Source of the DNA: Methanosarcinales archaeon ex4572_44
GTDB lineage: Archaea > Halobacteriota > Methanosarcinia > Methanosarcinales > EX4572-44
Direction: 5' to 3'
Assembly: GCA_002254825.2 (NCBI GenBank)
Contig: NJEL02000002.1
Location: 1-35,312, forward strand
Length of the DNA: 35,312 nucleotides
The notes under the pieces were generated by a model that saw only the letters and a program-made list of their open reading frames with translations, was not told where the DNA came from and did no database searches. Below, one piece after another: positions 14,943 through 32,291 of the stretch. Both the position numbers and the translations under genes were made by a program. Positions within the stretch are counted from its first letter, which is position 1. Each line of letters opens with the position of its first letter.

Positions 14943-14973
14943 AAAATCGTAGAGAGCCACTCTCTACGATTTT
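14943..14973. terminator. perfect 14-bp stem / 3-nt loop hairpin between convergent secY and the glycosyltransferase gene; possible bidirectional terminator
   Basis: AAAATCGTAGAGAG-cca-CTCTCTACGATTTT. The A/T runs at both ends give U-tracts on either transcript. It begins 1 nt after the secY stop, and its right arm overlaps the last codons of the minus-strand gene. Confidence 0.5.
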
Positions 14974-16199
14974 GGGGGGTATTTGTAGAAGAGTGTTATG
15001 CCATATTCGTCTGGTGGGTTTTTCATCTCTCTCCATAGTATGTATTCTGGTGTTATGTCTTTTGTTTTGAACCAGTACCAATTCATTTTGGCGCTGTCAA
15101 GTCGCTGGTATTGGTTGCTCAGTTTGTTCTGTACTTTTGGCGCGTCTGTGTCGTGGACTACGATCAATGGCGCGTTCAGTTGTGAGTCAGTTTTTACTTT
15201 CCAGCGTATGTTTTCATAATGACGTAGGTACCAGAGGAATTGTGTTTCGATCGCGGTGTCGGTTACATGGATTTCCGTGTTATATCTGTCCCAGTGGTTC
15301 GCGACTTCATCGATTTTGTCCAGCATTTCTTGGAATTTTTGTGGTGGTTGTGCTGCCTGAATCAGTGGTTCTGCCGGGTCTGTGTAATTGTGGTAGTTGA
15401 GTTGGAGGCTTGAGAAGACAAGCAGTAGGGTGGTCGTGATGAAGATTGCTACGAGTATCTGTCTGGTTTGCGGGTTGTTATTCTGGTGTTTCTGTAGTGT
15501 CTCGTTCAGTGTGGTTGATGCGAGGAGGATCATAGGTAGGAGTATGTGTATTGTGAGCCATGGTACTTTCTCTCCGAGGTAGGAGTATGCTGCAAGGCTT
15601 GTTAGGGTCCAGTAGATTAGGAATATTCTGAATCGGGCTGGTTTCTCTGGTTTTTGGATTGCTCCGATTGCTGCGAAGATCACGATCGGTAGTTCGTACA
15701 GTAATAGGATTGGGATATAGAAGTATGGTGGCCCACTGACGCGTTCTGTGGTGTGCATCCTGTACCAGTGGGTTAAGGCTGATTCAAAGGATGTTGCAAA
15801 GCCATGTGGATTTGAGAAAAAATCTGTGTAGAAGAGTGCATATACTATTAAAAAGGATGCGAGTATCGTTATTGTTGCTTGGTGGTGTTTTTTGATAGAT
15901 CTCCATGGTTGCAGTGGTTTTTTTGATATAATGTCCAGCAGGCATATGAGTGCGAGGTAGGATGTAAAGATCGCTATGTAGATGTACGTGTTCTCCTTTG
16001 CTGATGCAGAAAGCCCAAAGAATATTCCCGCACCAGCTGCAAAGAAGAGATTTCTTTTATCGTTGTATTTCAGGATACAGATTATGGCTGCAAGCATGAA
16101 GAAGGCTACAAACATGTCGTTTCTGAAGAAACGAGAGTAATAAAGGAAGGATGGTGATATGGCAAGGAAGAAGGCTGCAATGATTGCACCGCGCCTCAA
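14964..16199 (-). CDS. polytopic membrane protein, GT-C/PMT_2-like glycosyltransferase family (TIGR03663-like); apparently lacks the usual N-terminal ~100 aa
   Basis: The 411-aa product is multi-TM. Its N-terminus AISPSFLYYSRFFRNDMFVAFF resembles the internal conserved block of this family. Only a TTG start is available, with an in-frame stop 8 codons upstream. A soluble C-terminal domain is present. Confidence 0.6.
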   Translation of the reverse strand: MRRGAIIAAFFLAISPSFLYYSRFFRNDMFVAFFMLAAIICILKYNDKRNLFFAAGAGIFFGLSASAKENTYIYIAIFTSYLALICLLDIISKKPLQPWRSIKKHHQATITILASFLIVYALFYTDFFSNPHGFATSFESALTHWYRMHTTERVSGPPYFYIPILLLYELPIVIFAAIGAIQKPEKPARFRIFLIYWTLTSLAAYSYLGEKVPWLTIHILLPMILLASTTLNETLQKHQNNNPQTRQILVAIFITTTLLLVFSSLQLNYHNYTDPAEPLIQAAQPPQKFQEMLDKIDEVANHWDRYNTEIHVTDTAIETQFLWYLRHYENIRWKVKTDSQLNAPLIVVHDTDAPKVQNKLSNQYQRLDSAKMNWYWFKTKDITPEYILWREMKNPPDEYGITLFYKYPPKS

Positions 16200-16328: not shown

Positions 16329-18350
16329 ATGCGTGAAATTCCGGTTGGTAATGGCAGATTGCTTGTAAACTTTGATGCTGATTATCAGATCCGTGACATC
16401 TATTATCCTCATGTCGGTCTTGAGAATCATGGTGTTGGTTTTCCGTTCCGCTTCGGTCTATGGGTGGACGGTGATTTTTCGTGGATGGGGGATGAGTGGG
16501 AGAAGAGTTTGAAGTATCTCCCTGAGACCCTTGTGACCGATGTGAGACTTGTGAATAGAAGGCTTGGAATTGAGTTATTGTGCAATGACGTGGTCGATAT
16601 CGGGAGGGATATTTACATCCGTCAGATCAGAGTGGTTAACGAGCGGGATGAACTTCGGGAGGTGCGGTTGTTCTTCCATCAGGATTTTAGGATTATGGAA
16701 AATGCTGTTGGAGATACTGCAAGTTATGATCCTGGCACCGGCAGCGTGATTCATTATAAGGGCAAGAGATATTTTCTCGTCAGTGCTATTCGTGATGGTA
16801 AAAAAGGTGTTGATCAGTTTGCCACAGGTTTCAAGCAGTTTCACAATTTTGAAGGCACTTGGAAGGATGCTGAGGATGGTGTGCTCAGCAGGGGTCCAAT
16901 TGCACAGGGTTCTGTCGATTCCACGGTTGGTGTGAACCTTGTGCTTGATCCTCGTGGCGAGAAGGCAGTGTATTATATCATTGCTGTTGGGCGTGATTAT
17001 GGTACGGTTAGGGAGGGGTATTATTATCTGCTAGACCGTACACCGAGTTATTTCATACACCGCACAGAGAACTACTGGAAGAGGTGGGTGAACAAGACCG
17101 ATTTCAACTTCACGAACCTGCCTCCTCCAATTGTCGAGTTTTTTAAGAAGAGTCTTTTAATCCTCAGAACCCAGGTTGATGAGGGCGGTGCGATCATCGC
17201 AGCCAACGATACCGATATTCTCCAATTTGGTCGTGACACGTACAGTTACATGTGGCCAAGGGATGGTGCACTTGTGGCTTACGGGCTTGGTCTTTCGAAC
17301 AATCCTGCTATTGCAGAGCGTTTCTTCACATTCTGTTCAGGCATTCTGATGCATATCGGGTATCTCTTTCACAAGTACAATCCGGACGGGTCTATCGGGA
17401 GTTCCTGGCATCCTTGGATCATAGATGGTAGGAGGGTGCTTCCAATTCAAGAAGATGAGACTGCACTTGTGATCTGGGCATTGTGGGAGCATTTCGAGCG
17501 TTTTCGAAATATCGACTTTATTCGCTCGATCTATCATCCGTTGATCACGCAGGCTTCCGATTTCATGGTGAAGTATCGGGATAACGAGACAGGTCTCCCT
17601 GATCAGTCGTATGATCTCTGGGAGGAGCGGCGTGGCATTCACACCTTCACAACCTCTGCCGTCTACGGTGGCCTGATTGCAGCCGCTCGCTTTGCCGAGC
17701 TCTTCCATGACACCAGTGCCTGCAGGGAATACAATGCTGCAGCCCGTGAGATCAGATCTGGGTTGGAGCGGTATCTTTACAGTGAGGAGCTTAGGCGTTT
17801 TGTTCGAAGGATTGTTCCGAAGGGGTATGATGTTGATGGCGGTTTTGAGGTGGACGAGACCATTGATGCAAGCCTCTATGGAATATTTAAGTTCGGGGTC
17901 TTCAAGCCTGATGACCCGCGTGTGATCGATACCATGAAGACCATTGAAGATCGGCTCTGGGTCAAGAGTGATGTTGGTGGTGTTGCCCGTTACGAGGACG
18001 ATTATTATCACCGAGTTAGTAAGGATATAGCGAATGTACCAGGTAATCCATGGTTCATCTGCACGCTCTGGCTTGCACAGCATCGTATTGCAGTGGCACG
18101 CACGGTGAAAGAGTTAAAACTGGCAATCCCGCTCATGGAGTGGGTTGTTAGGCATGCCACGCCTTCGGGTGTTCTGGCTGAGCAGTTGGACCCTTATACT
18201 GGTGAACCGCTTTCGGTAAGCCCGCTCACGTGGAGCCATGGAGAGTTTGTAGCGACCGTGATGGAGTTTATTGAGAAGACAAAAAATCTGACCGTTTCAG
18301 CCGTCCTTGAATCGTATCATCTTGGTAGCGCTAAAAAGCGAAGTCCTTGA
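16329..18350 (+). CDS. glycoside hydrolase family 15 (glucoamylase / glucodextranase / trehalase type)
   Basis: 673 aa with an N-terminal beta-sandwich plus (alpha/alpha)6 catalytic domain. Motifs: YSYMWPRDGA, YDLWEERRGIHTFT (catalytic acid region), PWFICTLWLAQ, LAEQLDPYTGEPLSVSPLTWSH. Confidence 0.85.
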   Translation: MREIPVGNGRLLVNFDADYQIRDIYYPHVGLENHGVGFPFRFGLWVDGDFSWMGDEWEKSLKYLPETLVTDVRLVNRRLGIELLCNDVVDIGRDIYIRQIRVVNERDELREVRLFFHQDFRIMENAVGDTASYDPGTGSVIHYKGKRYFLVSAIRDGKKGVDQFATGFKQFHNFEGTWKDAEDGVLSRGPIAQGSVDSTVGVNLVLDPRGEKAVYYIIAVGRDYGTVREGYYYLLDRTPSYFIHRTENYWKRWVNKTDFNFTNLPPPIVEFFKKSLLILRTQVDEGGAIIAANDTDILQFGRDTYSYMWPRDGALVAYGLGLSNNPAIAERFFTFCSGILMHIGYLFHKYNPDGSIGSSWHPWIIDGRRVLPIQEDETALVIWALWEHFERFRNIDFIRSIYHPLITQASDFMVKYRDNETGLPDQSYDLWEERRGIHTFTTSAVYGGLIAAARFAELFHDTSACREYNAAAREIRSGLERYLYSEELRRFVRRIVPKGYDVDGGFEVDETIDASLYGIFKFGVFKPDDPRVIDTMKTIEDRLWVKSDVGGVARYEDDYYHRVSKDIANVPGNPWFICTLWLAQHRIAVARTVKELKLAIPLMEWVVRHATPSGVLAEQLDPYTGEPLSVSPLTWSHGEFVATVMEFIEKTKNLTVSAVLESYHLGSAKKRSP

Positions 18351-19422
18351 GTTCGTTGTATCGTTCGTAAACGAGTTCTTTGAATTTTTCAGGTTTTGCT
18401 CTGATGAGCGCTGCAAGCTCGAAGTCGCCGAGGTACTCTAACCATTTGATGATCCACCCAATCTCCTCTCCCTTGATCTCGTTGAGGTGTTCAATCAGTC
18501 CCTGCAACCCGTTACAGACTCTGTTTAGTGCGCAGTAGCCTTCTTTTCCCTCACCAAGTATTATTCTCCGTGCAATCTTGCATCGATGCACTGCTTCCTC
18601 TTTTGTGATCCAGTCAAGGTCACGACAGTTCCTGAAGCCCTTGAGCTGGTGTATCGTCTCTATGCTTTTTGCAGCCCTCCCTGCGAGTTCGAGCAGCATT
18701 TCGTTGTCCAACCCCGAGAGTGCGTAAGGTGTCTCATAGTAGCATTCGATAGCACCGATCACAGAGTTCTCTGCAATGAGGGGTATCCCAATTGCAGATG
18801 ATGGTGTTGTGCCGTTTTTGATCGTTGAAACACCTGTCCGTTTGGAAACATCCTCTGGTGTGATTGCAATCTTGATCTCAGCATGTCTGAGAGCATCTCC
18901 CACAAGTGTCTCATGCGTGCTGAGATCGATGGGCAGTACATCTCCTGCCACGTTCTCTGTGTATACTGGCGTGAGATGTGAGTCTTTCAGGAGGTAGATT
19001 ATGATTGCCTCGGATCCTGCAGTCTTCTGGATCAGGCTTGATATTATCTCTATGGTTTTATCAAGGTTCAGACATGCTATGAGAGCGTCTCCTGTCTCTC
19101 TGATTGCATCCCGTAGTTCCATTCCTGTTCGCTCCCACATCTCGAAGTATTCTTTGTAGACGAGGCTGAAATTCATTATGAATTCGAGGAAGAAGACCGA
19201 TGATTTTGAGACTATGAGTGGTATCTCTTGGAATGGTACCTCCTCTGTGAGCTTGCCGAGGGCATCGGTATGCACTGCTGTTATTTCTTCGAGACCAGTC
19301 TTCTCACGTATGCACTCTCTACTGAACTCATAGGCGTTGTAGAGAGCGGTCTCATCATCTCCTCCGAATAGGTACTCGTTGAGCAGTTCTGTATATGTCT
19401 CTTCAAGTTTTTCAGGAGTCAC
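18331..19422 (-). CDS. RsbU_N-like docking domain + GAF domain + Cys-containing C-terminal domain protein (putative output of the stressosome-like operon)
   Basis: The N-terminus YTELLNEYLFGGDDETALYNAYEFSRECIREKTGLEEITAVHTDALGKL parallels the N-terminal RsbT-binding domain of B. subtilis RsbU (recalled sequence). The central part has a GAF pattern (SAIGIPLIAENSVIGAIECYY...LLELAGRAAKSIE). The GTG start overlaps the upstream stop (GTGA). Confidence 0.65.
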   Translation of the reverse strand: MTPEKLEETYTELLNEYLFGGDDETALYNAYEFSRECIREKTGLEEITAVHTDALGKLTEEVPFQEIPLIVSKSSVFFLEFIMNFSLVYKEYFEMWERTGMELRDAIRETGDALIACLNLDKTIEIISSLIQKTAGSEAIIIYLLKDSHLTPVYTENVAGDVLPIDLSTHETLVGDALRHAEIKIAITPEDVSKRTGVSTIKNGTTPSSAIGIPLIAENSVIGAIECYYETPYALSGLDNEMLLELAGRAAKSIETIHQLKGFRNCRDLDWITKEEAVHRCKIARRIILGEGKEGYCALNRVCNGLQGLIEHLNEIKGEEIGWIIKWLEYLGDFELAALIRAKPEKFKELVYERYNELKDFAF

Positions 19423-20018
19423 TCTGATCTCCTCTCGCGTGCCACTACAATGGTTGCATCATCTGTTCCCCGCGCATACTCTCGGAACAACGCATCTGCG
19501 ATCCTCTCTTCATCCTGGCTGCAGAGTCGCAGGAGAAGCTCTCGGTTGATACCTGATCGTATCCCGTCTGAGTGCATCAGTATCAGATCTCCACTGGTGT
19601 AGGGGTATGTGTGCTCTATTACCCTTTGCATGTTGTACCCGATGATTCCACCTGTTGAGATCGGGTAGCTGTTCTCGCTCCCAATTATCCTGGTGGTGAT
19701 ATTCCCAACCCCTGCAAAATGGATCCTACCCTCATCTATTTTTATTATCACTACTGCCATGACAACGCCATCGGTAGCTCTGAGTGCATCATCACACGCA
19801 TAAAAGAGACCCGTCAGGGTGAAATCCTCTCTGGAGCGAATGTAGTCTCTTATTGTCTTCACACAGATAGTTGCAGCCCTTTCTGCATGATCTCCATGCC
19901 CGATGCCATCAATAAGACTGATCAGAATGCCCTGGTTTATCTCTTCCACCAGGTATGCATCGCCGTTTGCGGTGAACCCCTTCTTCGCCCTGCTGATAGC
20001 ACCCACGCCCATTTTCAT
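19419..20018 (-). CDS. stand-alone PP2C-type serine phosphatase, RsbX-like
   Basis: ~199 aa when started at the ATG that overlaps the upstream stop (ATGA at 20015-20018). PP2C/SpoIIE motifs: GDAYLV, LIDGIGHGDHA, MHSDGI, DDATIVV. Same size class as B. subtilis RsbX. Confidence 0.8.
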   Translation of the reverse strand: MKMGVGAISRAKKGFTANGDAYLVEEINQGILISLIDGIGHGDHAERAATICVKTIRDYIRSREDFTLTGLFYACDDALRATDGVVMAVVIIKIDEGRIHFAGVGNITTRIIGSENSYPISTGGIIGYNMQRVIEHTYPYTSGDLILMHSDGIRSGINRELLLRLCSQDEERIADALFREYARGTDDATIVVARERRSE

Positions 20019-20392
20019 CTCAACCACTTTCTGATCCGTACGCATGTTCCATCCTTCCCGGTGTCGATAGAGAGCTCATCCATCATGTGTTCAACACCCA
20101 GTAGCCCGATGCCAAGCCCATGGCTCACGCTCTTATCTCCATTATCTATAATTCCACTGCCCGAGTCCCTGCAGACGATCTCAATCCCCTGCTCGTTGGG
20201 GTGCACCTCAACCGTTCCAGCACCTGCATACTTCACTGCGTTCTCGGCGAGCTCTGAGACGGCAGTTGCGATCCGATGTTGATCATAGATACCAAAACCT
20301 ATTCTCTCTGCAATCTCTATCACACTCTCCCGCATGTTTATGATACCTGCCAGATTCTGGACATGAAAGACTCCCTCTCGCATTGGGCTCAT
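20015..20392 (-). CDS. second RsbT/RsbW-type anti-sigma-factor-like serine kinase (HATPase_c_2)
   Basis: 125 aa from the ATG overlapping the upstream stop. N-box-like VSELAENAVKYAGAG, G-boxes DSGSGI and GLGIGL, C-terminal IRKWL. Paralogous to the preceding gene. Confidence 0.75.
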   Translation of the reverse strand: MSPMREGVFHVQNLAGIINMRESVIEIAERIGFGIYDQHRIATAVSELAENAVKYAGAGTVEVHPNEQGIEIVCRDSGSGIIDNGDKSVSHGLGIGLLGVEHMMDELSIDTGKDGTCVRIRKWLR

Positions 20393-20793
20393 CGTCGTCT
20401 CAGCCATTTTTTGATGGTTATGATGGTTCCCTCACCTGGCTTTGATTTGATCTCAAACTCGTCCATGAGTTGCTTTGCACCAGATAGCCCGAGTCCAAGG
20501 CTGCCTGATGTACTGACCCCGCCTTTGAGCACAAGTCCAATATCCTTTATCCCAGGACCTTCATCTACACATACCACCACGATACCATTCTTATCACCAG
20601 TCTCACTTTGCGCCTTTTCAATTGTCACCTCTCCCTTGCCTGCATAGGTTACGATATTTCTTGTGAGTTCAGAGATGGCGGTGGTGATCTTTGTCTGATC
20701 CACCACGTTAAAACCCATTTTCATCGCAAGCTCGCGCCCCTTGCCCCGCGCAGCGATTATATCAGCGCTCGATGCAATATTCACCTTCGTCAT
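20389..20793 (-). CDS. rsbT: RsbT-like serine kinase / switch protein
   Basis: MTKVNIASSADIIAARGKGRELAMKMGFNVVDQTKITTAISELTRNIVTYAGKG...DEGPGI...STSGSLGLGLSGAKQLMDEF...IKKWL is colinear with B. subtilis RsbT (recalled). Start moved to ATG 20793, 15 nt after the rsbS-like stop. Confidence 0.88.
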   Translation of the reverse strand: MTKVNIASSADIIAARGKGRELAMKMGFNVVDQTKITTAISELTRNIVTYAGKGEVTIEKAQSETGDKNGIVVVCVDEGPGIKDIGLVLKGGVSTSGSLGLGLSGAKQLMDEFEIKSKPGEGTIITIKKWLRRR

Positions 20794-20807
20794 CTCCTCA
20801 TCTTCGC

Positions 20808-21188
20808 TCACGACACACCACCACGTTGCTCCGCCCCAATGAGTTGTTTCAACAGCTTCCTCCCCCTCTCGAGGTTGAGAGCAGTGTTCACGTTCCACTT
20901 GACACGTATCCCGAGTTCAACGAGGGTTACTGCAACAGCAGGTCGGATTCCCACAACAACCGTTTTTGCACCGAGCAGTTCTGCTGTTGCTGCAACATTT
21001 GAAAGGGTTCTACCCATAAAACTATCCACAATATCGAGGGCTGTGATATCGATTATCAACCCTGTGGCTCCAACATCCTTGATCCTGAGCAGTATATCTT
21101 CCTGCAGCTTGGATATCTCATCGTCAGAGAGCTCTGACTGGATCGTTACCACAAGGAAATCCTCAATCTTCAGTATAGGAATATCCAA
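20808..21188 (-). CDS. rsbS: RsbS-like single-STAS stressosome scaffold protein
   Basis: MDIPILKIEDFLVVTIQSELSDDEISKLQEDILLRIKDVGATGLIIDITALDIVDSFMGRTL...GAKTVVVGIRPAVAVTLVELGI is near-colinear with B. subtilis RsbS, including the phospho-serine context (DSF). Confidence 0.9.
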   Translation of the reverse strand: MDIPILKIEDFLVVTIQSELSDDEISKLQEDILLRIKDVGATGLIIDITALDIVDSFMGRTLSNVAATAELLGAKTVVVGIRPAVAVTLVELGIRVKWNVNTALNLERGRKLLKQLIGAEQRGGVS

Positions 21189-21203
21189 GAAAAATCCCTC
21201 TCT

Positions 21204-22046
21204 TCATCTATCTTCTATCCTCACTTTAAACCCAAGCATCTTGTCAGCGTGCCAGAGACCTGCACGCAGGTTGTTCTTCGTTATCAGCATCGAGATATCG
21301 ATCCCGAGACCTGCAAGCGTCTGTGCGTTAGCCGGGCTTATGCCTGTTATGATCGTATCTGCACCGAGCATCTTTGCAGCATGCACCGTCTTTATCATGT
21401 GGTTTGCTACCAGACTGTCAATTATTGGAACGCCTGTAAGATCGATTATCACAACCGACGCCTCAACTTCAACGATCCTATCCAACAACTCTTCCAAGAT
21501 CTGCTCCGCCCTTTCAGAATCGACGGTTCCGATCAATGGAAGCACCAGTATCTCCTCGCGTATCTGCAGGACTGGGGTGGAGAGGCTCATCATGGCTCTC
21601 TGCTGTTCGTGTATCACACGCTCCCGTTCCTCAACAAAAGCCATTGTCACAATGGTGAGGATATTATTTGCAATGGGTTCATACGAGTCGAGCAGTTGAT
21701 AGAGCTTCTCCTCATCATCCCGATACTTTGAGAAGATGAAACGCTCATAGATATCTCGAAGTTTGAGAATCCCACCGATTATTCTCTCAACGCTCATATC
21801 ATGCATCACTGCTTCTTCGGTTATTATTTTTGCATATTTTTCAACATCTTCAAATTCGCCAGTTCTGAAGGTTGAGACCACAGTGTTGTAGAGAGCAGTG
21901 TACCGCGCCTCTGTCTCAACATCACTCATCTGTTCAAGAAGACCTGATTCTCGCATCTCGGTTATCCACTGTCCCTTCAACTGATCTGCATGATCCTCAA
22001 AGAGAGCGCTCAACTCTCTTTCCAAATTTTGACTCATACCGCTCAC
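21204..22046 (-). CDS. rsbR: RsbR-like stressosome sensor protein (helical N-terminal sensor domain + C-terminal STAS)
   Basis: C-terminus: LPLIGTVDSERAEQILEELL...VIIDLTGVPIIDSLVANH...ITGISPANAQTLAGLGID. It matches the RsbRA STAS domain, with Ser/Thr at both phospho-acceptor positions. Start is GTG 22046 or ATG 22037. Confidence 0.85.
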   Translation of the reverse strand: MSGMSQNLERELSALFEDHADQLKGQWITEMRESGLLEQMSDVETEARYTALYNTVVSTFRTGEFEDVEKYAKIITEEAVMHDMSVERIIGGILKLRDIYERFIFSKYRDDEEKLYQLLDSYEPIANNILTIVTMAFVEERERVIHEQQRAMMSLSTPVLQIREEILVLPLIGTVDSERAEQILEELLDRIVEVEASVVIIDLTGVPIIDSLVANHMIKTVHAAKMLGADTIITGISPANAQTLAGLGIDISMLITKNNLRAGLWHADKMLGFKVRIEDR

Positions 22047-22092
22047 CCGACTATCACAACAGGTATCATTCTGTGATTATTGGTACATAATA

Positions 22093-22111
22093 CTGTCGAA
22101 TATTCTGACAG
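22093..22111. promoter_or_regulatory. near-perfect 19-bp palindrome upstream of the rsbR-like gene (candidate operator)
   Basis: CTGTC-GAATATTC-tGACAG lies 47-65 nt upstream of the rsbR-like start, next to AT-rich TATA-like sequence on the minus strand. Confidence 0.3.
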
Positions 22112-22278
22112 ATCCTAACTCCATGTTATAGATATCCCCTTACAGATAGAAGAACGCCTCCAAACCGAGACCCCAAGAGACACCGCATAAACCAGAGCCC
22201 ACCCCCGCAAAAGATTTAACGCTAAGAGGCCATACAAGACCTGAAAAGCGATCTTTATCCTTTAGTTGGGGCAATGCA

Positions 22279-22728
22279 ATGGTTTCACGCACACCACTAC
22301 TAACGGTCGACGTTGTAATCATCTATCAAAAAAAGATAGTTTTGATCAGGCGTGCCAATCCACCCTACCAGGGCTACTATGCGCTACCCGGCGGTTTTGT
22401 TGAGATCGGTGAAACAGTAGAAGATGCTGCTCGGCGCGAGGCAGAAGAAGAGACCACGCTTAACGTGAAGCTCGTAAAGCTTCTTGGTGTCTATTCTGAC
22501 CCTGATCGGGATCCGCGTGGGCACACCATCTCAATCGCATACATCGGCGAAGGAACAGGTAGGCTGGTCGCCAATACTGACGCTGCCTCCGTAGAATTGT
22601 TCGACACCGATGAACTGCCTAAAAAACTCGCCTTTGACCATGAAAAAATCCTAAGAGATGCATTCCATGTCATTTTAAACGCTCACAGCCCTCACAATAT
22701 TTTATTTCATTCAAACCGAAAAAGATAA
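22279..22728 (+). CDS. Nudix hydrolase
   Basis: Nudix box GGFVEIGETVEDAARREAEEETTL (Gx5Ex7REUxEExGU). Confidence 0.88.
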   Translation: MVSRTPLLTVDVVIIYQKKIVLIRRANPPYQGYYALPGGFVEIGETVEDAARREAEEETTLNVKLVKLLGVYSDPDRDPRGHTISIAYIGEGTGRLVANTDAASVELFDTDELPKKLAFDHEKILRDAFHVILNAHSPHNILFHSNRKR

Positions 22729-22820: not shown

Positions 22821-23333
22821 CTATATGTTGAATATTTTTCGTGCGTTTTCGGTGGTTTTCTGTGCTATTTTCTCGAAGTTTGTCTCTTTTATGTTGGCTA
22901 TGGTTGTAATTGCATCCACTATGAAGGCTGGCTCGTTCCTTCCGCGGCGGGGTGAGAGGTATGGCGAATCGGTCTCAACGAGCAATCGGTCGAGCGGGAC
23001 TTCGCGTGCGAGGTCTCTGTGGTGTTGTGAGAAGCAGACGAGTGTTGCGAGCGAGATGTAGAAGCCGTGGTCGAGTATCTCGTTCATCGTCTCGATGCTT
23101 CCGCCGTAGCAGTGGAATACTACGCTATCACAGTTCTCTACTATTTTTAGTGCTTTTTCTTCTGCATCTCTTGCGTGGAGTATCACGGCTCCCTCAAAGG
23201 TGGTTGTTATCCCTGAGGTTATAATCTCGCTCACACCACTTCTCCCTGCTCTACTCAGGGCATCGCCTCTATCTGAGTTGAACTGTGGAAAGTTGATGTG
23301 ACAGTGTGAGTCAATTATCAGAGGGTTTCTCAT
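22821..23333 (-). CDS. TatD-family metal-dependent hydrolase, unusually short (internal segment missing)
   Basis: IIDSHCH (HxH), ILHARDA, VFHCYGG and LLVETDSPYL motifs are present, but the product is only 170 aa. The ATG overlaps the upstream gene's stop (ATGA 23330-23333). Confidence 0.75.
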   Translation of the reverse strand: MRNPLIIDSHCHINFPQFNSDRGDALSRAGRSGVSEIITSGITTTFEGAVILHARDAEEKALKIVENCDSVVFHCYGGSIETMNEILDHGFYISLATLVCFSQHHRDLAREVPLDRLLVETDSPYLSPRRGRNEPAFIVDAITTIANIKETNFEKIAQKTTENARKIFNI

Positions 23334-24859
23334 CTGCTGATTGAGAGTAGGTGGTTGATGGCTACTACAAAGGCTTCAACCGATGCCATGACTATGTCTT
23401 CTCTTGCAACACTTGCGGTGATCATTCGTCCTGTTTCATCTTCCACTCCGATAGTTACCTCTGCAAGTGCGTCAGATCCTCCAGATATGGCTTCTATCCT
23501 AAAGTCTTTTATCTTCACCTTGAAACGCTCGCCGAGCATGCTTTCAAGGGTTTTGAGTGCCGCATCCACTGTTCCAACTCCTGTGTGTGCTGCAAGTTGC
23601 TCTTGATCGTCTATTATGGCTTTTATAGCTGCTGTGGGTGTGATCAGGTTGCCTGTCATAACCGAGACCTCTTTCAATGCGATTACTTGCTCTCTTCTCG
23701 AGACCTGTCCCATCACAGTATCCGCAACAGCAATTAGGTCTGAATCGGTGACACGCTTGCCCTTGTCAGCGATCTGTTTCACGCGTGAGAGTATCTCTCG
23801 CAACTGCTCTCTGTTGGGTTGTATATCCATTACATTGAGTGCCTGTTCCACTGCGTGGCTGCCTGTGTGTTTGCCGAGCACGATCCGTCGTTTGTGCCCC
23901 ACCATCTCAGGGGTCATTATACCAGGTTCAAAGGTCTCTGATTCTACGATCACCCCGTGGGCATGTATCCCGGACTCGTGGGCAAAGGCATTATCCCCTA
24001 TGATCGGCATTGTGATCGGCATCTTTACATCGGTGTAGCGCTCCACGAGCTTTGAGGTTTCAAAGAGGCGTTCGGTCCTGATAGTTGTTCTGGCACCGTA
24101 CATGCTGTGGAGGCTCATCACAACCTGGGCTATGTCAGCATTGCCTGCACGTTCCCCGAGTCCGTTCACGGTCACCTGCACCTGCGAGGCTCCTGCTTCG
24201 CATGCTGCAAGGCTGTTGGCTGATGCAAGCCCAAAATCGTCGTGGCAGTGAACATCGATCGGGATTTTAACCGCACTGTTGATGCCTTTTATCAATTTGT
24301 ACATCTCTGAGGGCACAATCACGCCAACTGTGTCTGGGACATTTATCACATCACATCCAACAGACTCAACCCTGGAGAATATCTCTTTTAAGTAGGAGAG
24401 TTCTGTTCTGGTGGCATCCATCGCTGAGAACATGCATTTCACACCACAGTCCTTGATCTGCTCCACCGCATCCACAGCCATCTGAGAGACCTCCTCCCGA
24501 GTCTTCTTGATGGTATGAATCCGCTGAACATCAGAGGTTGAGACAAAAATGTGCACCATATCAACGTCACACTCGATGCACGCATCAACATCCTCTTTCA
24601 CCACCCTCGCAAGCCCGCATACATCAGCAGTGCTCAAATCCAATCCAGCGATCGTCCGCGTAGCAGCCATATCACCTTCAGAAGCATTTGGGAATCCTGC
24701 TTCGATCACATTCACACCGAGCTCGTCCAATTTCTCTGCTATACAAACCTTTTCATCGATTGTGAGTGCAACACCAGGTGTCTGCTCTCCATCACGGAGC
24801 GTCGTATCAAAAATGCGTATCTTTCTCCCTTTCAACGATTCATTGAAGTAAAATGCCAT
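23330..24859 (-). CDS. 2-isopropylmalate synthase / (R)-citramalate synthase family enzyme (LeuA/CimA)
   Basis: [17 protein letters not shown] and [16 protein letters not shown] motifs of the DRE-TIM aldolase fold, plus a C-terminal LeuA-dimer regulatory domain. 509 aa. LeuA and CimA cannot be told apart by eye. Confidence 0.88.
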
Positions 24860-29840: not shown

Positions 29841-30941
29841 TTGTCTGATGAGCTTGGTGTCTCTGAGCTATTTGAGATCACTGCTGATATCGGTGGTCGT
29901 CCTGGTGTGGACTGCAGAGGTTTCTGCAAGTACTGCTATTTCAAGCGTGTGAAAGAAAATCCTGTGTTAGGGTGCAGGTATTGTTCAAGGGAGAATGTTG
30001 GCTGCGACAAGTGCCGTTATGAGATTGTTGAGAAGCATAACGGGTACGCCGATCCCACGATCCTTCAGCACTACGTGATTTCCAGGACCACACAGGAGCG
30101 TTTCGCAAACCCCAATCGCAGTTATGCAATCAACATCAGCGGGGGCGGGGATGCTGGTTGCTACCCCGATCTATTGGAGCTTGTCCGATCAATCGGGGGC
30201 GTAGCCCCTATCCACCTCGGCTACGTGAGCGGTAAGGGGTTAACACCGCAGGATGCAATGGAACTCGTTGAAGCAGGCGTTCGGATCGTCACTTTCACCG
30301 TCTTCTCAACCGATCCGTTGTTGCGAAGGGAGTGGCTGAATGACCACGCCCCAGAAGCTGCATTAGAGTCGTTGCGCACGTTTGCTGGTAACTGTGAAAC
30401 CTATGCTGCTGCTGTGATAATACCAGGCGTGAATGCTGAAGATATCTTCAAGACTGCTCGGACGCTTGAGTCGTGGGGCGTTAAAGGACTCACACTCATG
30501 CGTTTTGGAAACAATGAAGAGAACGGGATTATACTTGGAAACGAGCCGATCATAGAAGGTATCACCCCCCAAAGTGTTGAAGAATTCAGAGAGCTCGTGC
30601 TTGCTGTTGACCGTGCTGTCCCCGGGATGAGGGTGGTCGGAACACCGCTCTTTGATCCTCTCACTGGTGCACCATTCGCACTTGCAAGCGTCTTAGAGGA
30701 TGATTTTCCAGATTTTTCACCGATCCGATCCGAAGCCACGATCCTCACTGGGAAGGTTGCAGCCCCCTTTATTGAGAGGATACTTCAGAGGATTGACGGA
30801 TCTCAACATGTGAACGTGATCAGTCTTGAAAAGGAGATCGGCGACCTCATCACGCACCGCGATCTTGAGCGGTTGCCACTCGATTGTGTGAAGGAAACTG
30901 TTGTGGTCCCAGGCAATGCGCTCATCCATTCACAGAGCTAA
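29841..30941 (+). CDS. mmp10: methanogenesis marker 10-type radical SAM protein (Mmp10, B12-dependent methyl-coenzyme M reductase arginine C-methyltransferase family)
   Basis: N-terminus ADIGGRPGVDCRGFCKYCYFKRV carries the CX3CX2C radical SAM motif. It is immediately followed by CRYCSRENVGCDKC (CX2CX6CX2C). 366 aa. TTG at 29841 is the only possible in-frame start. Confidence 0.7.
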   Translation: MSDELGVSELFEITADIGGRPGVDCRGFCKYCYFKRVKENPVLGCRYCSRENVGCDKCRYEIVEKHNGYADPTILQHYVISRTTQERFANPNRSYAINISGGGDAGCYPDLLELVRSIGGVAPIHLGYVSGKGLTPQDAMELVEAGVRIVTFTVFSTDPLLRREWLNDHAPEAALESLRTFAGNCETYAAAVIIPGVNAEDIFKTARTLESWGVKGLTLMRFGNNEENGIILGNEPIIEGITPQSVEEFRELVLAVDRAVPGMRVVGTPLFDPLTGAPFALASVLEDDFPDFSPIRSEATILTGKVAAPFIERILQRIDGSQHVNVISLEKEIGDLITHRDLERLPLDCVKETVVVPGNALIHSQS

Positions 30942-31299: not shown

Positions 31300-31683
31300 T
31301 TAAGCGAGCCTTCTCATTTCCATAGCACTCATCTGAGATATCGTCAAGCCAACGCCACGACCCATGACAAGAGAGTTCACCTTGGCGCCGCTCTCTCTCA
31401 AACCCTCGATGAGATTGCAGTGCGGAACAGGCGCATGGTGACGGGCATACGAAGGCGAGACCATTATAATCTCAATACCAGTGAGCGGCGCAGGCATAAG
31501 CTCACCGTGCACGATTTTAACCATGCCCTCTATCTTCGAAACACCCTCCTTTGGCACTGCAAAGATCATGACTACTTCAGTGGAGGTAAGGTCTATCGAG
31601 ACGATGAACCCGCCAACATCCTCTATTAAATCTGTCACCCAATCATGCCTGTAGGGCGCACCCCGAAAGATCATGAACTCCAT
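31300..31683 (-). CDS. hypothetical protein (~124-127 aa), middle gene of the three-gene cassette
   Basis: Start is ATG 31683, or ATG 31674 which forms an ATGA overlap with the upstream stop. No recognised motif. The track's longer start (31713) is discarded. Confidence 0.6.
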   Translation of the reverse strand: MEFMIFRGAPYRHDWVTDLIEDVGGFIVSIDLTSTEVVMIFAVPKEGVSKIEGMVKIVHGELMPAPLTGIEIIMVSPSYARHHAPVPHCNLIEGLRESGAKVNSLVMGRGVGLTISQMSAMEMRRLA

Positions 31684-32291
31684 CCAAACCTCTCCTTCAC
31701 ACGATTGACCCACTCAGGCTCAATAACAGCCTCAGATGCAACCACAAGCACCGACTTTGCCCCATATTCCACATGACGCACCCTGAAACCTACAGGGATT
31801 ATCTGAAGTGCAAGCGTAACAAGCTGATCATATATCTCCTTTGAAGGATCAACGATCACAATACCCAGCAACCCATCAAGATCAACACCCTCTTTCTTAA
31901 CCAGAATATGGGATCGTTCAGGCTGCTCCACATTATCCCTCCCATAAATATCCCAAAGCCTCCGCAGTATCTCAGGGATATACCGTTCCTCTCCAATCAC
32001 AAGATCAAACTCATCCCCAACAACACGGGCAACCGAGATGTCATTGATGGTAAGAGGCTTTTCAACCGCCTTGAACTCAATCTGGCACGAGAAGAGAGGG
32101 GTTTTTGGATCAGCATAGATACGAAGAGCATCAAGGTTCTTGACGTTCATATCCATCATCAGGTACTCAACAATCTCACGATACGCAGCAACACCCGCTT
32201 CATCCTCACACTCAACAAACAGATTCTCCATAAAGTCACCCGAAACACCAATATTATTCAGATCAAAGATTTGAAAGGTCTTCCGACCCAT
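31671..32291 (-). CDS. conserved hypothetical protein (206 aa); possibly a methanogenesis-marker small protein (Mmp17-like), unverified
   Basis: Clean ORF with an ATG start. A TATA-like TGTATATA lies on the minus strand ~40 nt upstream (32331-32338). The Mmp17-like guess rests only on size, context next to mmp10 and a vague motif recollection (EERYIPEILRRLWDIYGRDNVEQPER). Confidence 0.55.
   Translation of the reverse strand: MGRKTFQIFDLNNIGVSGDFMENLFVECEDEAGVAAYREIVEYLMMDMNVKNLDALRIYADPKTPLFSCQIEFKAVEKPLTINDISVARVVGDEFDLVIGEERYIPEILRRLWDIYGRDNVEQPERSHILVKKEGVDLDGLLGIVIVDPSKEIYDQLVTLALQIIPVGFRVRHVEYGAKSVLVVASEAVIEPEWVNRVKERFGWSS

Follow-up and report, generated by a model that had tools for sequence, protein, structure and literature searches.

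A stressosome-type partner-switching cassette in GoM-Arc1 archaea, with a new receiver domain and a possible output to storage-sugar metabolism

Stressosomes are structurally well studied and their outputs beyond the sigma-B pathway are poorly known; what, then, might such a module control in an archaeon? The question is raised by a 35,312-nucleotide (nt) stretch of DNA from the ethane-oxidising Methanosarcinales archaeon ex4572_44 (contig NJEL02000002.1), hereafter the window, in which six tightly packed, co-directional minus-strand genes (18331-22046) encode: an RsbR-like scaffold or sensor protein; an RsbS-like single-STAS protein; two RsbT-like GHKL kinases, here called T and T2; an RsbX-type phosphatase; and a receiver protein with a C-terminal domain of a new family. 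The data suggest a stressosome-type partner-switching cassette whose likeliest output is to control storage-sugar (alpha-glucan/trehalose) metabolism post-translationally, perhaps with the product of an adjacent glycoside hydrolase family 15 (GH15) gene among its targets; we regard the chances of this reading as evenly balanced. The locus is a testable case, combining a canonical input, a known RsbT-docking domain and a small, well-folding effector that is also free-standing. As the effector domain exists on its own, its binding partners should be easy to look for.

The four-gene rsbRSTX module occurs in many bacteria and in some archaeal species, and its signals are known to feed into sigma factors, second messengers or two-component systems (PMC9237108, PMC10014275). 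Our literature search found no paper characterising an archaeal stressosome module, nor any that connects Ethanoperedens or Argoarchaeum to stressosome genes. A first-pass annotation of this DNA had stated that no archaeal module was characterised, and to that extent it agrees with the search; the presence of rsbRSTX in archaea, which it had half-granted, is already published in the two papers just cited.

All six open reading frames (ORFs) proposed in that annotation are found at their coordinates, its quoted motifs (DIVDSF, ITTAISELTRNIVTYAGKG, DEGPGI, KKWL and IIDSLVA) are all present, and Pfam profile hidden Markov models (HMMs) back every domain assignment. The products of 134, 125 and 199 amino acids (aa) start at internal ATGs of longer, mechanically called ORFs. 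The RsbR-like and RsbS-like genes are separated by 15 nt, and the RsbS-like and RsbT-like genes by 14 nt, where 15 had been given. The remaining junctions are the annotated 4-nt overlaps: ATGA at T/T2 and at T2/X, and GTGA at X/receiver. Shine-Dalgarno-like GAGGAG/GAGAGG motifs lie ahead of several of the starts. The same six genes recur in the same order in the loci with enough sequence (L001/L006, L002, L003, L004, L005, L008, L009 and L010), with protein identities of 52-92% across loci; such recurrence shows that the ORFs are not together by chance. Every GoM-Arc1 genome recovered keeps this order, and the cassette is a stable element of these genomes.

The scaffold proteins are closely related to those of known stressosomes. 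The 126-aa RsbS-like protein (20808-21188) carries a Pfam STAS domain and matches the sequences of solved RsbS proteins over its full length: Listeria RsbS at 2.2e-29, B. subtilis RsbS at 6.7e-29 and Moorella MtS at 2.4e-27. The serine of its DSF motif, Ser57, aligns with the phospho-serine, a site marked by the S-to-A mutant chain 9o4r; the earlier reading of DIVDSF as a phospho-serine context is thereby borne out. The 280-aa RsbR-like protein (21204-22046) consists of an N-terminal helical sensor domain and a C-terminal STAS domain (Pfam STAS, 4.6e-15; RsbRD_N weak and sub-threshold at 0.0038). It matches Listeria RsbR with an E-value of 1.6e-33, residues 20-267 aligning to 14-265, and thus the N-terminal sensor region is included in the match. 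Two serines stand in place of threonines at the acceptor positions, Ser177 (VDSERA) at that of Listeria T175 and Ser211 (IIDSLVA) at that of T209. The first-pass annotation had correctly named the RsbR-type STAS domain and the serine of IIDSLVA; its second site, the threonine of NAQTLAGLG (Thr243), was misplaced, since it is Ser177 and Ser211 that align with T175 and T209.

The 199-aa product (19419-20018) is an RsbX/MtX-type stand-alone PP2C phosphatase, as had been proposed. It matches Pfam SpoIIE at 5.7e-10, Moorella MtX (3ZT9), its closest solved counterpart, at 2.7e-26 and B. subtilis RsbX at 1.3e-11, and the metal-site motifs GD, DGIGHG, HSDG and DDAT are all found. We conclude with high confidence that the input side, comprising R, S, T and X, is a canonical stressosome-type module.

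The two kinases are encoded side by side. T, the 134-aa product (20389-20793) encoded directly after the rsbS-like gene, matches Pfam HATPase_c_2 (2.5e-10, above the cut-off) and HATPase_c (1.9e-11) and has an intact N-box (SELTRN), G1 box (DEGPGI) and G2 box (GLGLGLSG); together with the conserved R-S-T gene order, this upholds its annotation as an RsbT-type kinase. T2 (125 aa; 20015-20392; HATPase_c_2, 1.5e-12) is 40% identical to T and likewise retains the N-, G1 and G2 boxes, with an ATP-lid segment between G1 and G2 that is 5-8 residues shorter. It forms a separate orthologous group in every cassette and evolves faster, its orthologs within GoM-Arc1 being 52-73% identical as compared to 67-87% for T. 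A search of PDB sequences with both kinases gave nothing at E<=0.001; at E<=5 the nearest solved relatives were only SpoIIAB (0.012 for T) and RsbW (1.3 for T), both weak, in a PDB set that holds no RsbT sequence. Against a presumed, unverified B. subtilis RsbT sequence, and so as a lead only, T is 53% and T2 39% identical; against an RsbW sequence presumed in the same way, and likewise only a lead, both are about 27% identical. With these presumed, unverified sequences, T2 scores 77 bits to RsbT and 34 to RsbW. This suggests that T is probably an RsbT ortholog and T2 a divergent RsbT paralog rather than an RsbW. T2 may act on a second kind of substrate, or it may be a competitor of T for the receiver; the literature examined was not found to mention any further RsbT paralog of this sort.

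The receiver is the 363-aa product of the last gene (18331-19422). Its first domain (aa 1-95; 19138-19422) is RsbU_N, at 8.5e-12 and 45.5 bits relative to a Pfam cut-off of 25.5, and residues 1-94 match the N-terminal domain of B. subtilis RsbU at 1e-5. RsbT activates RsbU via the dimeric RsbU N-domain and its linker helix, with E24, Y28, I74 and I78 in the interface (PMC12143880). All eight receiver orthologs retain E24 and Y28 without exception, and the invariant hydrophobic residues L79 and M83 occupy the positions of I74 and I78; on these grounds the protein is a receiver of the recognised RsbT type, judged from its sequence. A GAF domain follows (aa 118-255; 18658-19071; Pfam GAF_2, 2.1e-08). 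The same work describes Moorella MtG as RsbU_N-GAF-GGDEF under the control of MtT, and places RsbU_N-histidine kinases in stressosome operons (PMC12143880). The receiver architecture is closest to that of MtG, and the earlier description of the operon as lacking any recognisable canonical output was therefore overstated: RsbU_N-GAF is a known RsbT-receiver architecture, and only the effector domain is new. With moderate confidence, homology and the conserved interface residues point to docking of T on RsbU_N as the route to the output. The structural model predicts a single helix over residues 64-114, with a predicted local distance difference test score (pLDDT) below 50 from residue 89 onward.

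How far the cassette departs from known systems is best seen by comparison. The R, S, T and X homologs are common to it and to the Moorella MtR-MtS-MtT-MtX and MtG system, as the latter is represented in PMC12143880 (citing Quin et al. 2012). The receiver shares the RsbU_N-GAF start of MtG, whereas an ~85-aa domain stands where MtG has GGDEF; the window cassette also differs from the Moorella module in its extra RsbT paralog and its archaeal host. With the RsbRST-RsbX systems of B. subtilis and Listeria, which signal to RsbU, RsbV, RsbW and sigma B, it shares full-length R and S similarity, the phospho positions, an RsbX-type phosphatase and an RsbU_N domain with E24/Y28. In contrast to those systems, its RsbU_N protein has no PP2C domain, its RsbR acceptors are Ser rather than Thr, and there are two RsbT-like kinases. 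No RsbV, histidine kinase or GGDEF protein, as had been noted before, and no sigma factor or RsbW was found among the window ORFs scanned, which were the large ORFs on both sides of the operon.

A further likeness is to proteobacterial rsbRSTX loci with a two-component output (Vibrio vulnificus; RsbU_N-histidine kinases, Heinz et al. 2022, as reported in PMC12143880), where an RsbU_N protein is likewise encoded with the RSTX core. A GC-rich metagenomic contig found via T2 (L095:6091-9387) encodes an RsbU_N-HisKA-HATPase protein, STAS proteins of 158 and 126 aa, two adjacent RsbT-like kinases and a PP2C; its kinases K1 and K2 pair with T and T2. Two-kinase stressosome-type cores therefore exist outside archaea. 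In L095 and the proteobacterial loci the effector is HisKA-HATPase_c, whereas in the window cassette it is GAF plus the new domain. Because L095 joins the same core to an RsbU_N-histidine kinase, the RsbU_N protein is the swappable output. In the window cassette, the signalling module and the receiver architecture are of known types, the effector domain is new, a kinase has been added, and the whole is fixed in an archaeal lineage.

Among 5.8 billion proteins, the receiver forms only eight clusters at 90% identity, with no member below 61%. When one genome per GTDB species was scanned with two peptide patterns taken from RsbU_N, a search that may miss distant relatives, hits came from the GoM-Arc1 clade alone. 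The carriers are Ca. Ethanoperedens thermophilum, Ca. Argoarchaeum ethanivorans, one GoM-Arc1 Methanosarcinales metagenome-assembled genome and Ca. Methanoperedenaceae archaeon GB37 (= GoM-Arc1_E37), in which the gene sits on a contig of 1.92 Mb.

The candidate effector of the receiver is its C-terminal domain (aa ~278-363; 18334-18591). Even at E<=5 these residues match no family in Pfam or NCBIfam, and no known catalytic effector (PP2C, GGDEF or histidine kinase) is found at the receiver C-terminus, the last 109 aa matching no family in either collection. An exhaustive HMMER search of 1.84 billion representatives identified 37 relatives (E down to 2.7e-10), most of them free-standing and 75-170 aa long; those few that carry an organism name come from archaea and are annotated "hypothetical protein". 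A profile search of a word-indexed database with the domain alignment added little, and comparison of the family with Pfam at permissive thresholds gave nothing recurrent. One candidate relative, P0012 (1662 aa, "8 repeats"), was dropped as a low-complexity artefact. The family core is W-x3-W-x-EYLGD, in which W323, W327 and EYLGD are invariant across orthologs and the whole family; the stand-alone proteins share this core and an upstream Tyr with the receiver domain. Upstream of the core helix, a predicted beta-hairpin bears a KNPYY-type motif whose Lys and Tyr hardly vary and which reads KEGYC in the receiver. A model from the family alignment (pLDDT 85.9; predicted template modelling score 0.74) has a beta-hairpin and four helices, and a fold search with it against the PDB found no match, all E-values being above 1. 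The conserved core is acidic to neutral, with a mean net charge of about -1 and a pI mostly of 4.3-7. Fusion to RsbU_N-GAF occurs only in GoM-Arc1 proteins; the other fusions are single cases, to REC, PIN_9, HhH, an S1 fragment and the end of a GT1 glycosyltransferase.

Another C-terminal region recalls this domain in its motif pattern. DUF5752 forms the tail of NTP_transferase-LbH sugar-1-phosphate nucleotidyltransferases (L020:2475-3950, L024:1578-3203, L047:2496-3929, L071:1331-2764, L076:1-1341 and L089:413-1798), which are encoded directly upstream of a small-domain gene and a glycogen-synthase-like glycosyltransferase (GT). The pattern of the tail, G..A..L.EF ... W[IL]..[LGD/FRD]..LA, resembles the new domain. 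The profile-profile comparison is co-linear over 63 columns and weak (E 0.019, probability 2.4%), and the Pfam DUF5752 HMM (PF19027) matches none of 35 domain-family members even at E<=5; we claim no relationship between the two. The literature search found no paper on DUF5752.

The stand-alone relatives provide a view of the company that the domain keeps. Of the first two contexts, one contained glycogen phosphorylase, GAPDH and PGK, the other a Glyco_transf_5-type synthase and a glycoside hydrolase of family 57 (GH57). A metagenome scan with a trimmed domain alignment (A3) yielded 105 relatives; 80 loci were kept, and clustering at 80% identity left 44. Of the 73 immediate neighbours in these 44 non-redundant loci, 13 are GT1/GT4 glycosyltransferases, 10 of which match the starch-synthase catalytic domain; six are NTP_transferase-LbH proteins with the DUF5752 tail, seven are DJ-1/PfpI proteins and one is a GH57 protein. 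Each such sugar enzyme accounts for about one or two genes per few thousand, so that the chance expectation among 73 neighbours is well under one. A GalT-like protein and an ADP-dependent sugar kinase are also among these neighbours. By BLAST to references, a sugar gene (GT4/GT5, nucleotidyltransferase, GH57 or GalT-like) lies within two genes in 18 of the 44 clusters and is adjacent in 16. Two gene orders recur: [NTP-transferase-DUF5752]-[small protein]-[GT], and [GalT-like]-[GT]-[small protein]-[DJ-1]. Where DJ-1/PfpI occurs, it is the convergent downstream neighbour of the small-domain gene (L049, L062, L067, L100 and others). The three GT neighbours scanned against NCBIfam have glgA_Coryne as best or third-best match, below its cut-off. 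The receiver domain thus has free-standing kin in GT4/GT5, nucleoside diphosphate (NDP)-sugar, GalT-like and DJ-1 clusters, in contrast to its own place at the end of an RsbU_N-GAF protein.

The cassette itself has a sugar-related neighbour. The GH15 glucoamylase-like gene (16329-18350, plus strand; Pfam Glyco_hydro_15, 1e-30) faces the operon in convergent orientation and shares 20 nt with the 3' end of the receiver gene. Its product matches the NCBIfam oligosaccharide amylase at 8.1e-89, below the cut-off, as well as PDB glucoamylases, and TreH1/TreH2 weakly. GH15 adjoins the cassette in the window and in L001/L002/L006, L003 and L005, which represent four diverged lineages; in the GH15-flanked L001/L002, L003 and L005 the receiver is 61-77% identical and the other flank differs. 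GH15 is a possible functional partner outside the transcription unit of the operon. Cultures of Ca. Ethanoperedens accumulate trehalose, up to 75% of extracted metabolites, and its genomes are rich in disaccharide-metabolism genes (bioRxiv 10.64898/2026.05.21.726584).

The sequences show the gene content, the homologies, the conserved residues, the persistence of the cassette and the genomic company of the domain family; for the mechanism we infer complex assembly, phosphorylation, binding of RsbT to the receiver and a target in sugar metabolism. The RsbR-like and RsbS-like STAS proteins would form a scaffold that holds the RsbT-like kinase. Upon a signal, the kinase would phosphorylate RsbS Ser57 and RsbR Ser177/Ser211 and be released, and the RsbX-type PP2C would later reset the scaffold. 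Once free, RsbT would dock on the 363-aa protein at its RsbU_N dimer and the helix that comes next, in the manner of RsbT-RsbU and MtT-MtG, and this binding would switch the ~85-aa C-terminal domain to another state. Through the GAF domain a small-molecule input may be added.

The storage-sugar output is favoured as most likely because the domain family is encoded beside glycogen-synthase-like GTs and sugar-1-phosphate nucleotidyltransferases. Drawn from this gene association and the GH15 neighbour, storage-sugar control as the output is a tentative proposal, held at clearly less than even strength. More specific, and on the doubtful side, is the suggestion that the W-x3-W-x-EYLGD domain defines a new family of effectors or adaptors whose members bind enzymes of alpha-glucan/trehalose metabolism directly and regulate them, the targets being a GT4/GT5 glucan synthase, an NDP-sugar pyrophosphorylase and GH15. 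Several observations weigh against the sugar reading. A sugar-gene neighbour is missing from 26 of the 44 stand-alone loci; the GT neighbours fall under the NCBIfam trusted cut-offs for glycogen synthase, and GT4 is a broad family; and GH15 is not beside the cassette in the Argoarchaeum-type loci L004, L008 and L009. The fusions to HhH, an S1 fragment, PIN_9 and REC point elsewhere than sugar, and the REC-fused member, with no sugar genes nearby, has an uninformative context. The route from scaffold to effector has weak points as well: T is assigned to RsbT from family-level profiles, the order of the genes and a presumed sequence, and the full-length receiver model, built from eight sequences, is poor (pLDDT 55), which makes the linker geometry uncertain.

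If the sugar link is true, a new output class joins the stressosome toolkit, a widespread "hypothetical" small-protein family gains a function, and there is a hint of how syntrophic ethane oxidisers might control the large pools of trehalose/glucan lately reported from their cultures. If the domain does bind the enzymes directly, this would be the first stressosome wired post-translationally to carbon storage rather than to a sigma factor, second messenger or two-component system, operating in an archaeon that accumulates large sugar pools.

Other outputs are conceivable for the same input module. The C-terminal domain could act on gene expression, through DNA, RNA or a transcription factor, with control at the transcriptional or post-transcriptional level, in which case sugar genes could still be targets. 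Members fused to HhH, an S1 fragment and PIN_9, several stand-alone members with Lys/Arg-rich N-terminal tails, and a member forming the C-terminal part of a REC protein, often the position of a DNA-binding domain, would fit this role; yet the nucleic-acid-related fusions are single cases, the N-terminal tails are acidic as often as basic, the domain core is acidic to neutral, and the PDB fold search matched neither a helix-turn-helix nor any other fold that binds nucleic acids. We consider action on gene expression unlikely. Alternatively, the RsbU_N-GAF protein could be a sink or adaptor whose C-terminal domain serves dimerisation or localisation only, the real outputs being substrates of the kinases, especially T2, encoded elsewhere. 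The presence of two kinases and one obvious receiver speaks for such an arrangement, as does T2, which is conserved in an orthologous group of its own and has a modified ATP lid; a second kinase is also present in L095, where the output differs. Nevertheless, no candidate gene for a STAS or other substrate is found nearby, and the C-terminal domain is highly conserved (W323, W327 and EYLGD) and exists apart from the module, which argues for a function of its own. A sink or adaptor role is, in our judgement, decidedly unlikely.

Two further alternatives concern the nature of the module rather than its output. The six genes may specify a small, soluble partner-switching system of low-order R/S/T complexes and not a true ~1.8-MDa stressosome. 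Assembly is not readable from sequence, and the "R" protein of L095 is just 158 aa long, which shows that a large sensor domain can be absent from related modules. The window R and S proteins, however, match stressosome scaffold proteins over their full length at 1e-29 to 1e-33, the N-terminal region of R included, and low-order complexes are accordingly given a small probability, making them highly unlikely. Finally, the closest solved homologs come from Firmicutes, as might be expected if the operon were bacterial DNA mis-binned or mis-assembled into an archaeal contig. Against this, archaeal genes flank the cassette on both sides in the window and in independent assemblies, among them the 1.92-Mb contig; the GC content of the operon (0.46-0.51) is the same as that of the remaining window, with no compositional break; and the orthologs diverge in step with the host clade. 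The probability of mis-binning is negligible, and a bacterial/archaeal chimera is ruled out by the archaeal flanks, the independent assemblies and the absence of a GC break. A similarity search of the operon DNA against plasmids gave no match.

The archaeal host assigned at first pass from S4e, L32e, L19e and Mmp10 stands. S4e, L19e, L32e, L3, S3, S17, SecY, Mmp10 and methanogenesis marker 17 of the window all score above the NCBIfam cut-offs. Mmp10, the methyl-coenzyme M reductase arginine methyltransferase (29841-30941, plus strand), and methanogenesis marker 17 (31671-32291, minus strand) fit an archaeon that uses an alkyl-coenzyme M reductase. The archaeal flanks differ from locus to locus: L003 has L7Ae/S28e/L24e/aIF2, L004 has Alba and L001 has a KaiC-like gene. 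This last gene (GB37 L001:6199-6957, minus strand; PF06745, DUF7125) encodes a KaiC-like ATPase and lies divergently upstream of the cassette, a place taken in the window by a NUDIX gene (22279-22728). The intergenic region shared by the operon and the divergent NUDIX gene (22047-22278) contains AT-rich stretches and is the presumed promoter region of the operon.

Two neighbouring ORFs appear incomplete. A TatD-type ORF (22821-23333, minus strand, 170 aa) covers only profile positions 124-253, seems to be a C-terminal half only, and abuts a LeuA-type gene (23330-24859) with a 4-nt overlap. On the other side of the operon, an Agl23/PMT-like glycosyltransferase ORF (14964-16199, minus strand, 411 aa) matches its profile only from position 98, has a 529-aa homolog in GB37 and lies only 129 nt from the divergent GH15 gene; for these reasons, the gene looks 5'-truncated or rearranged.

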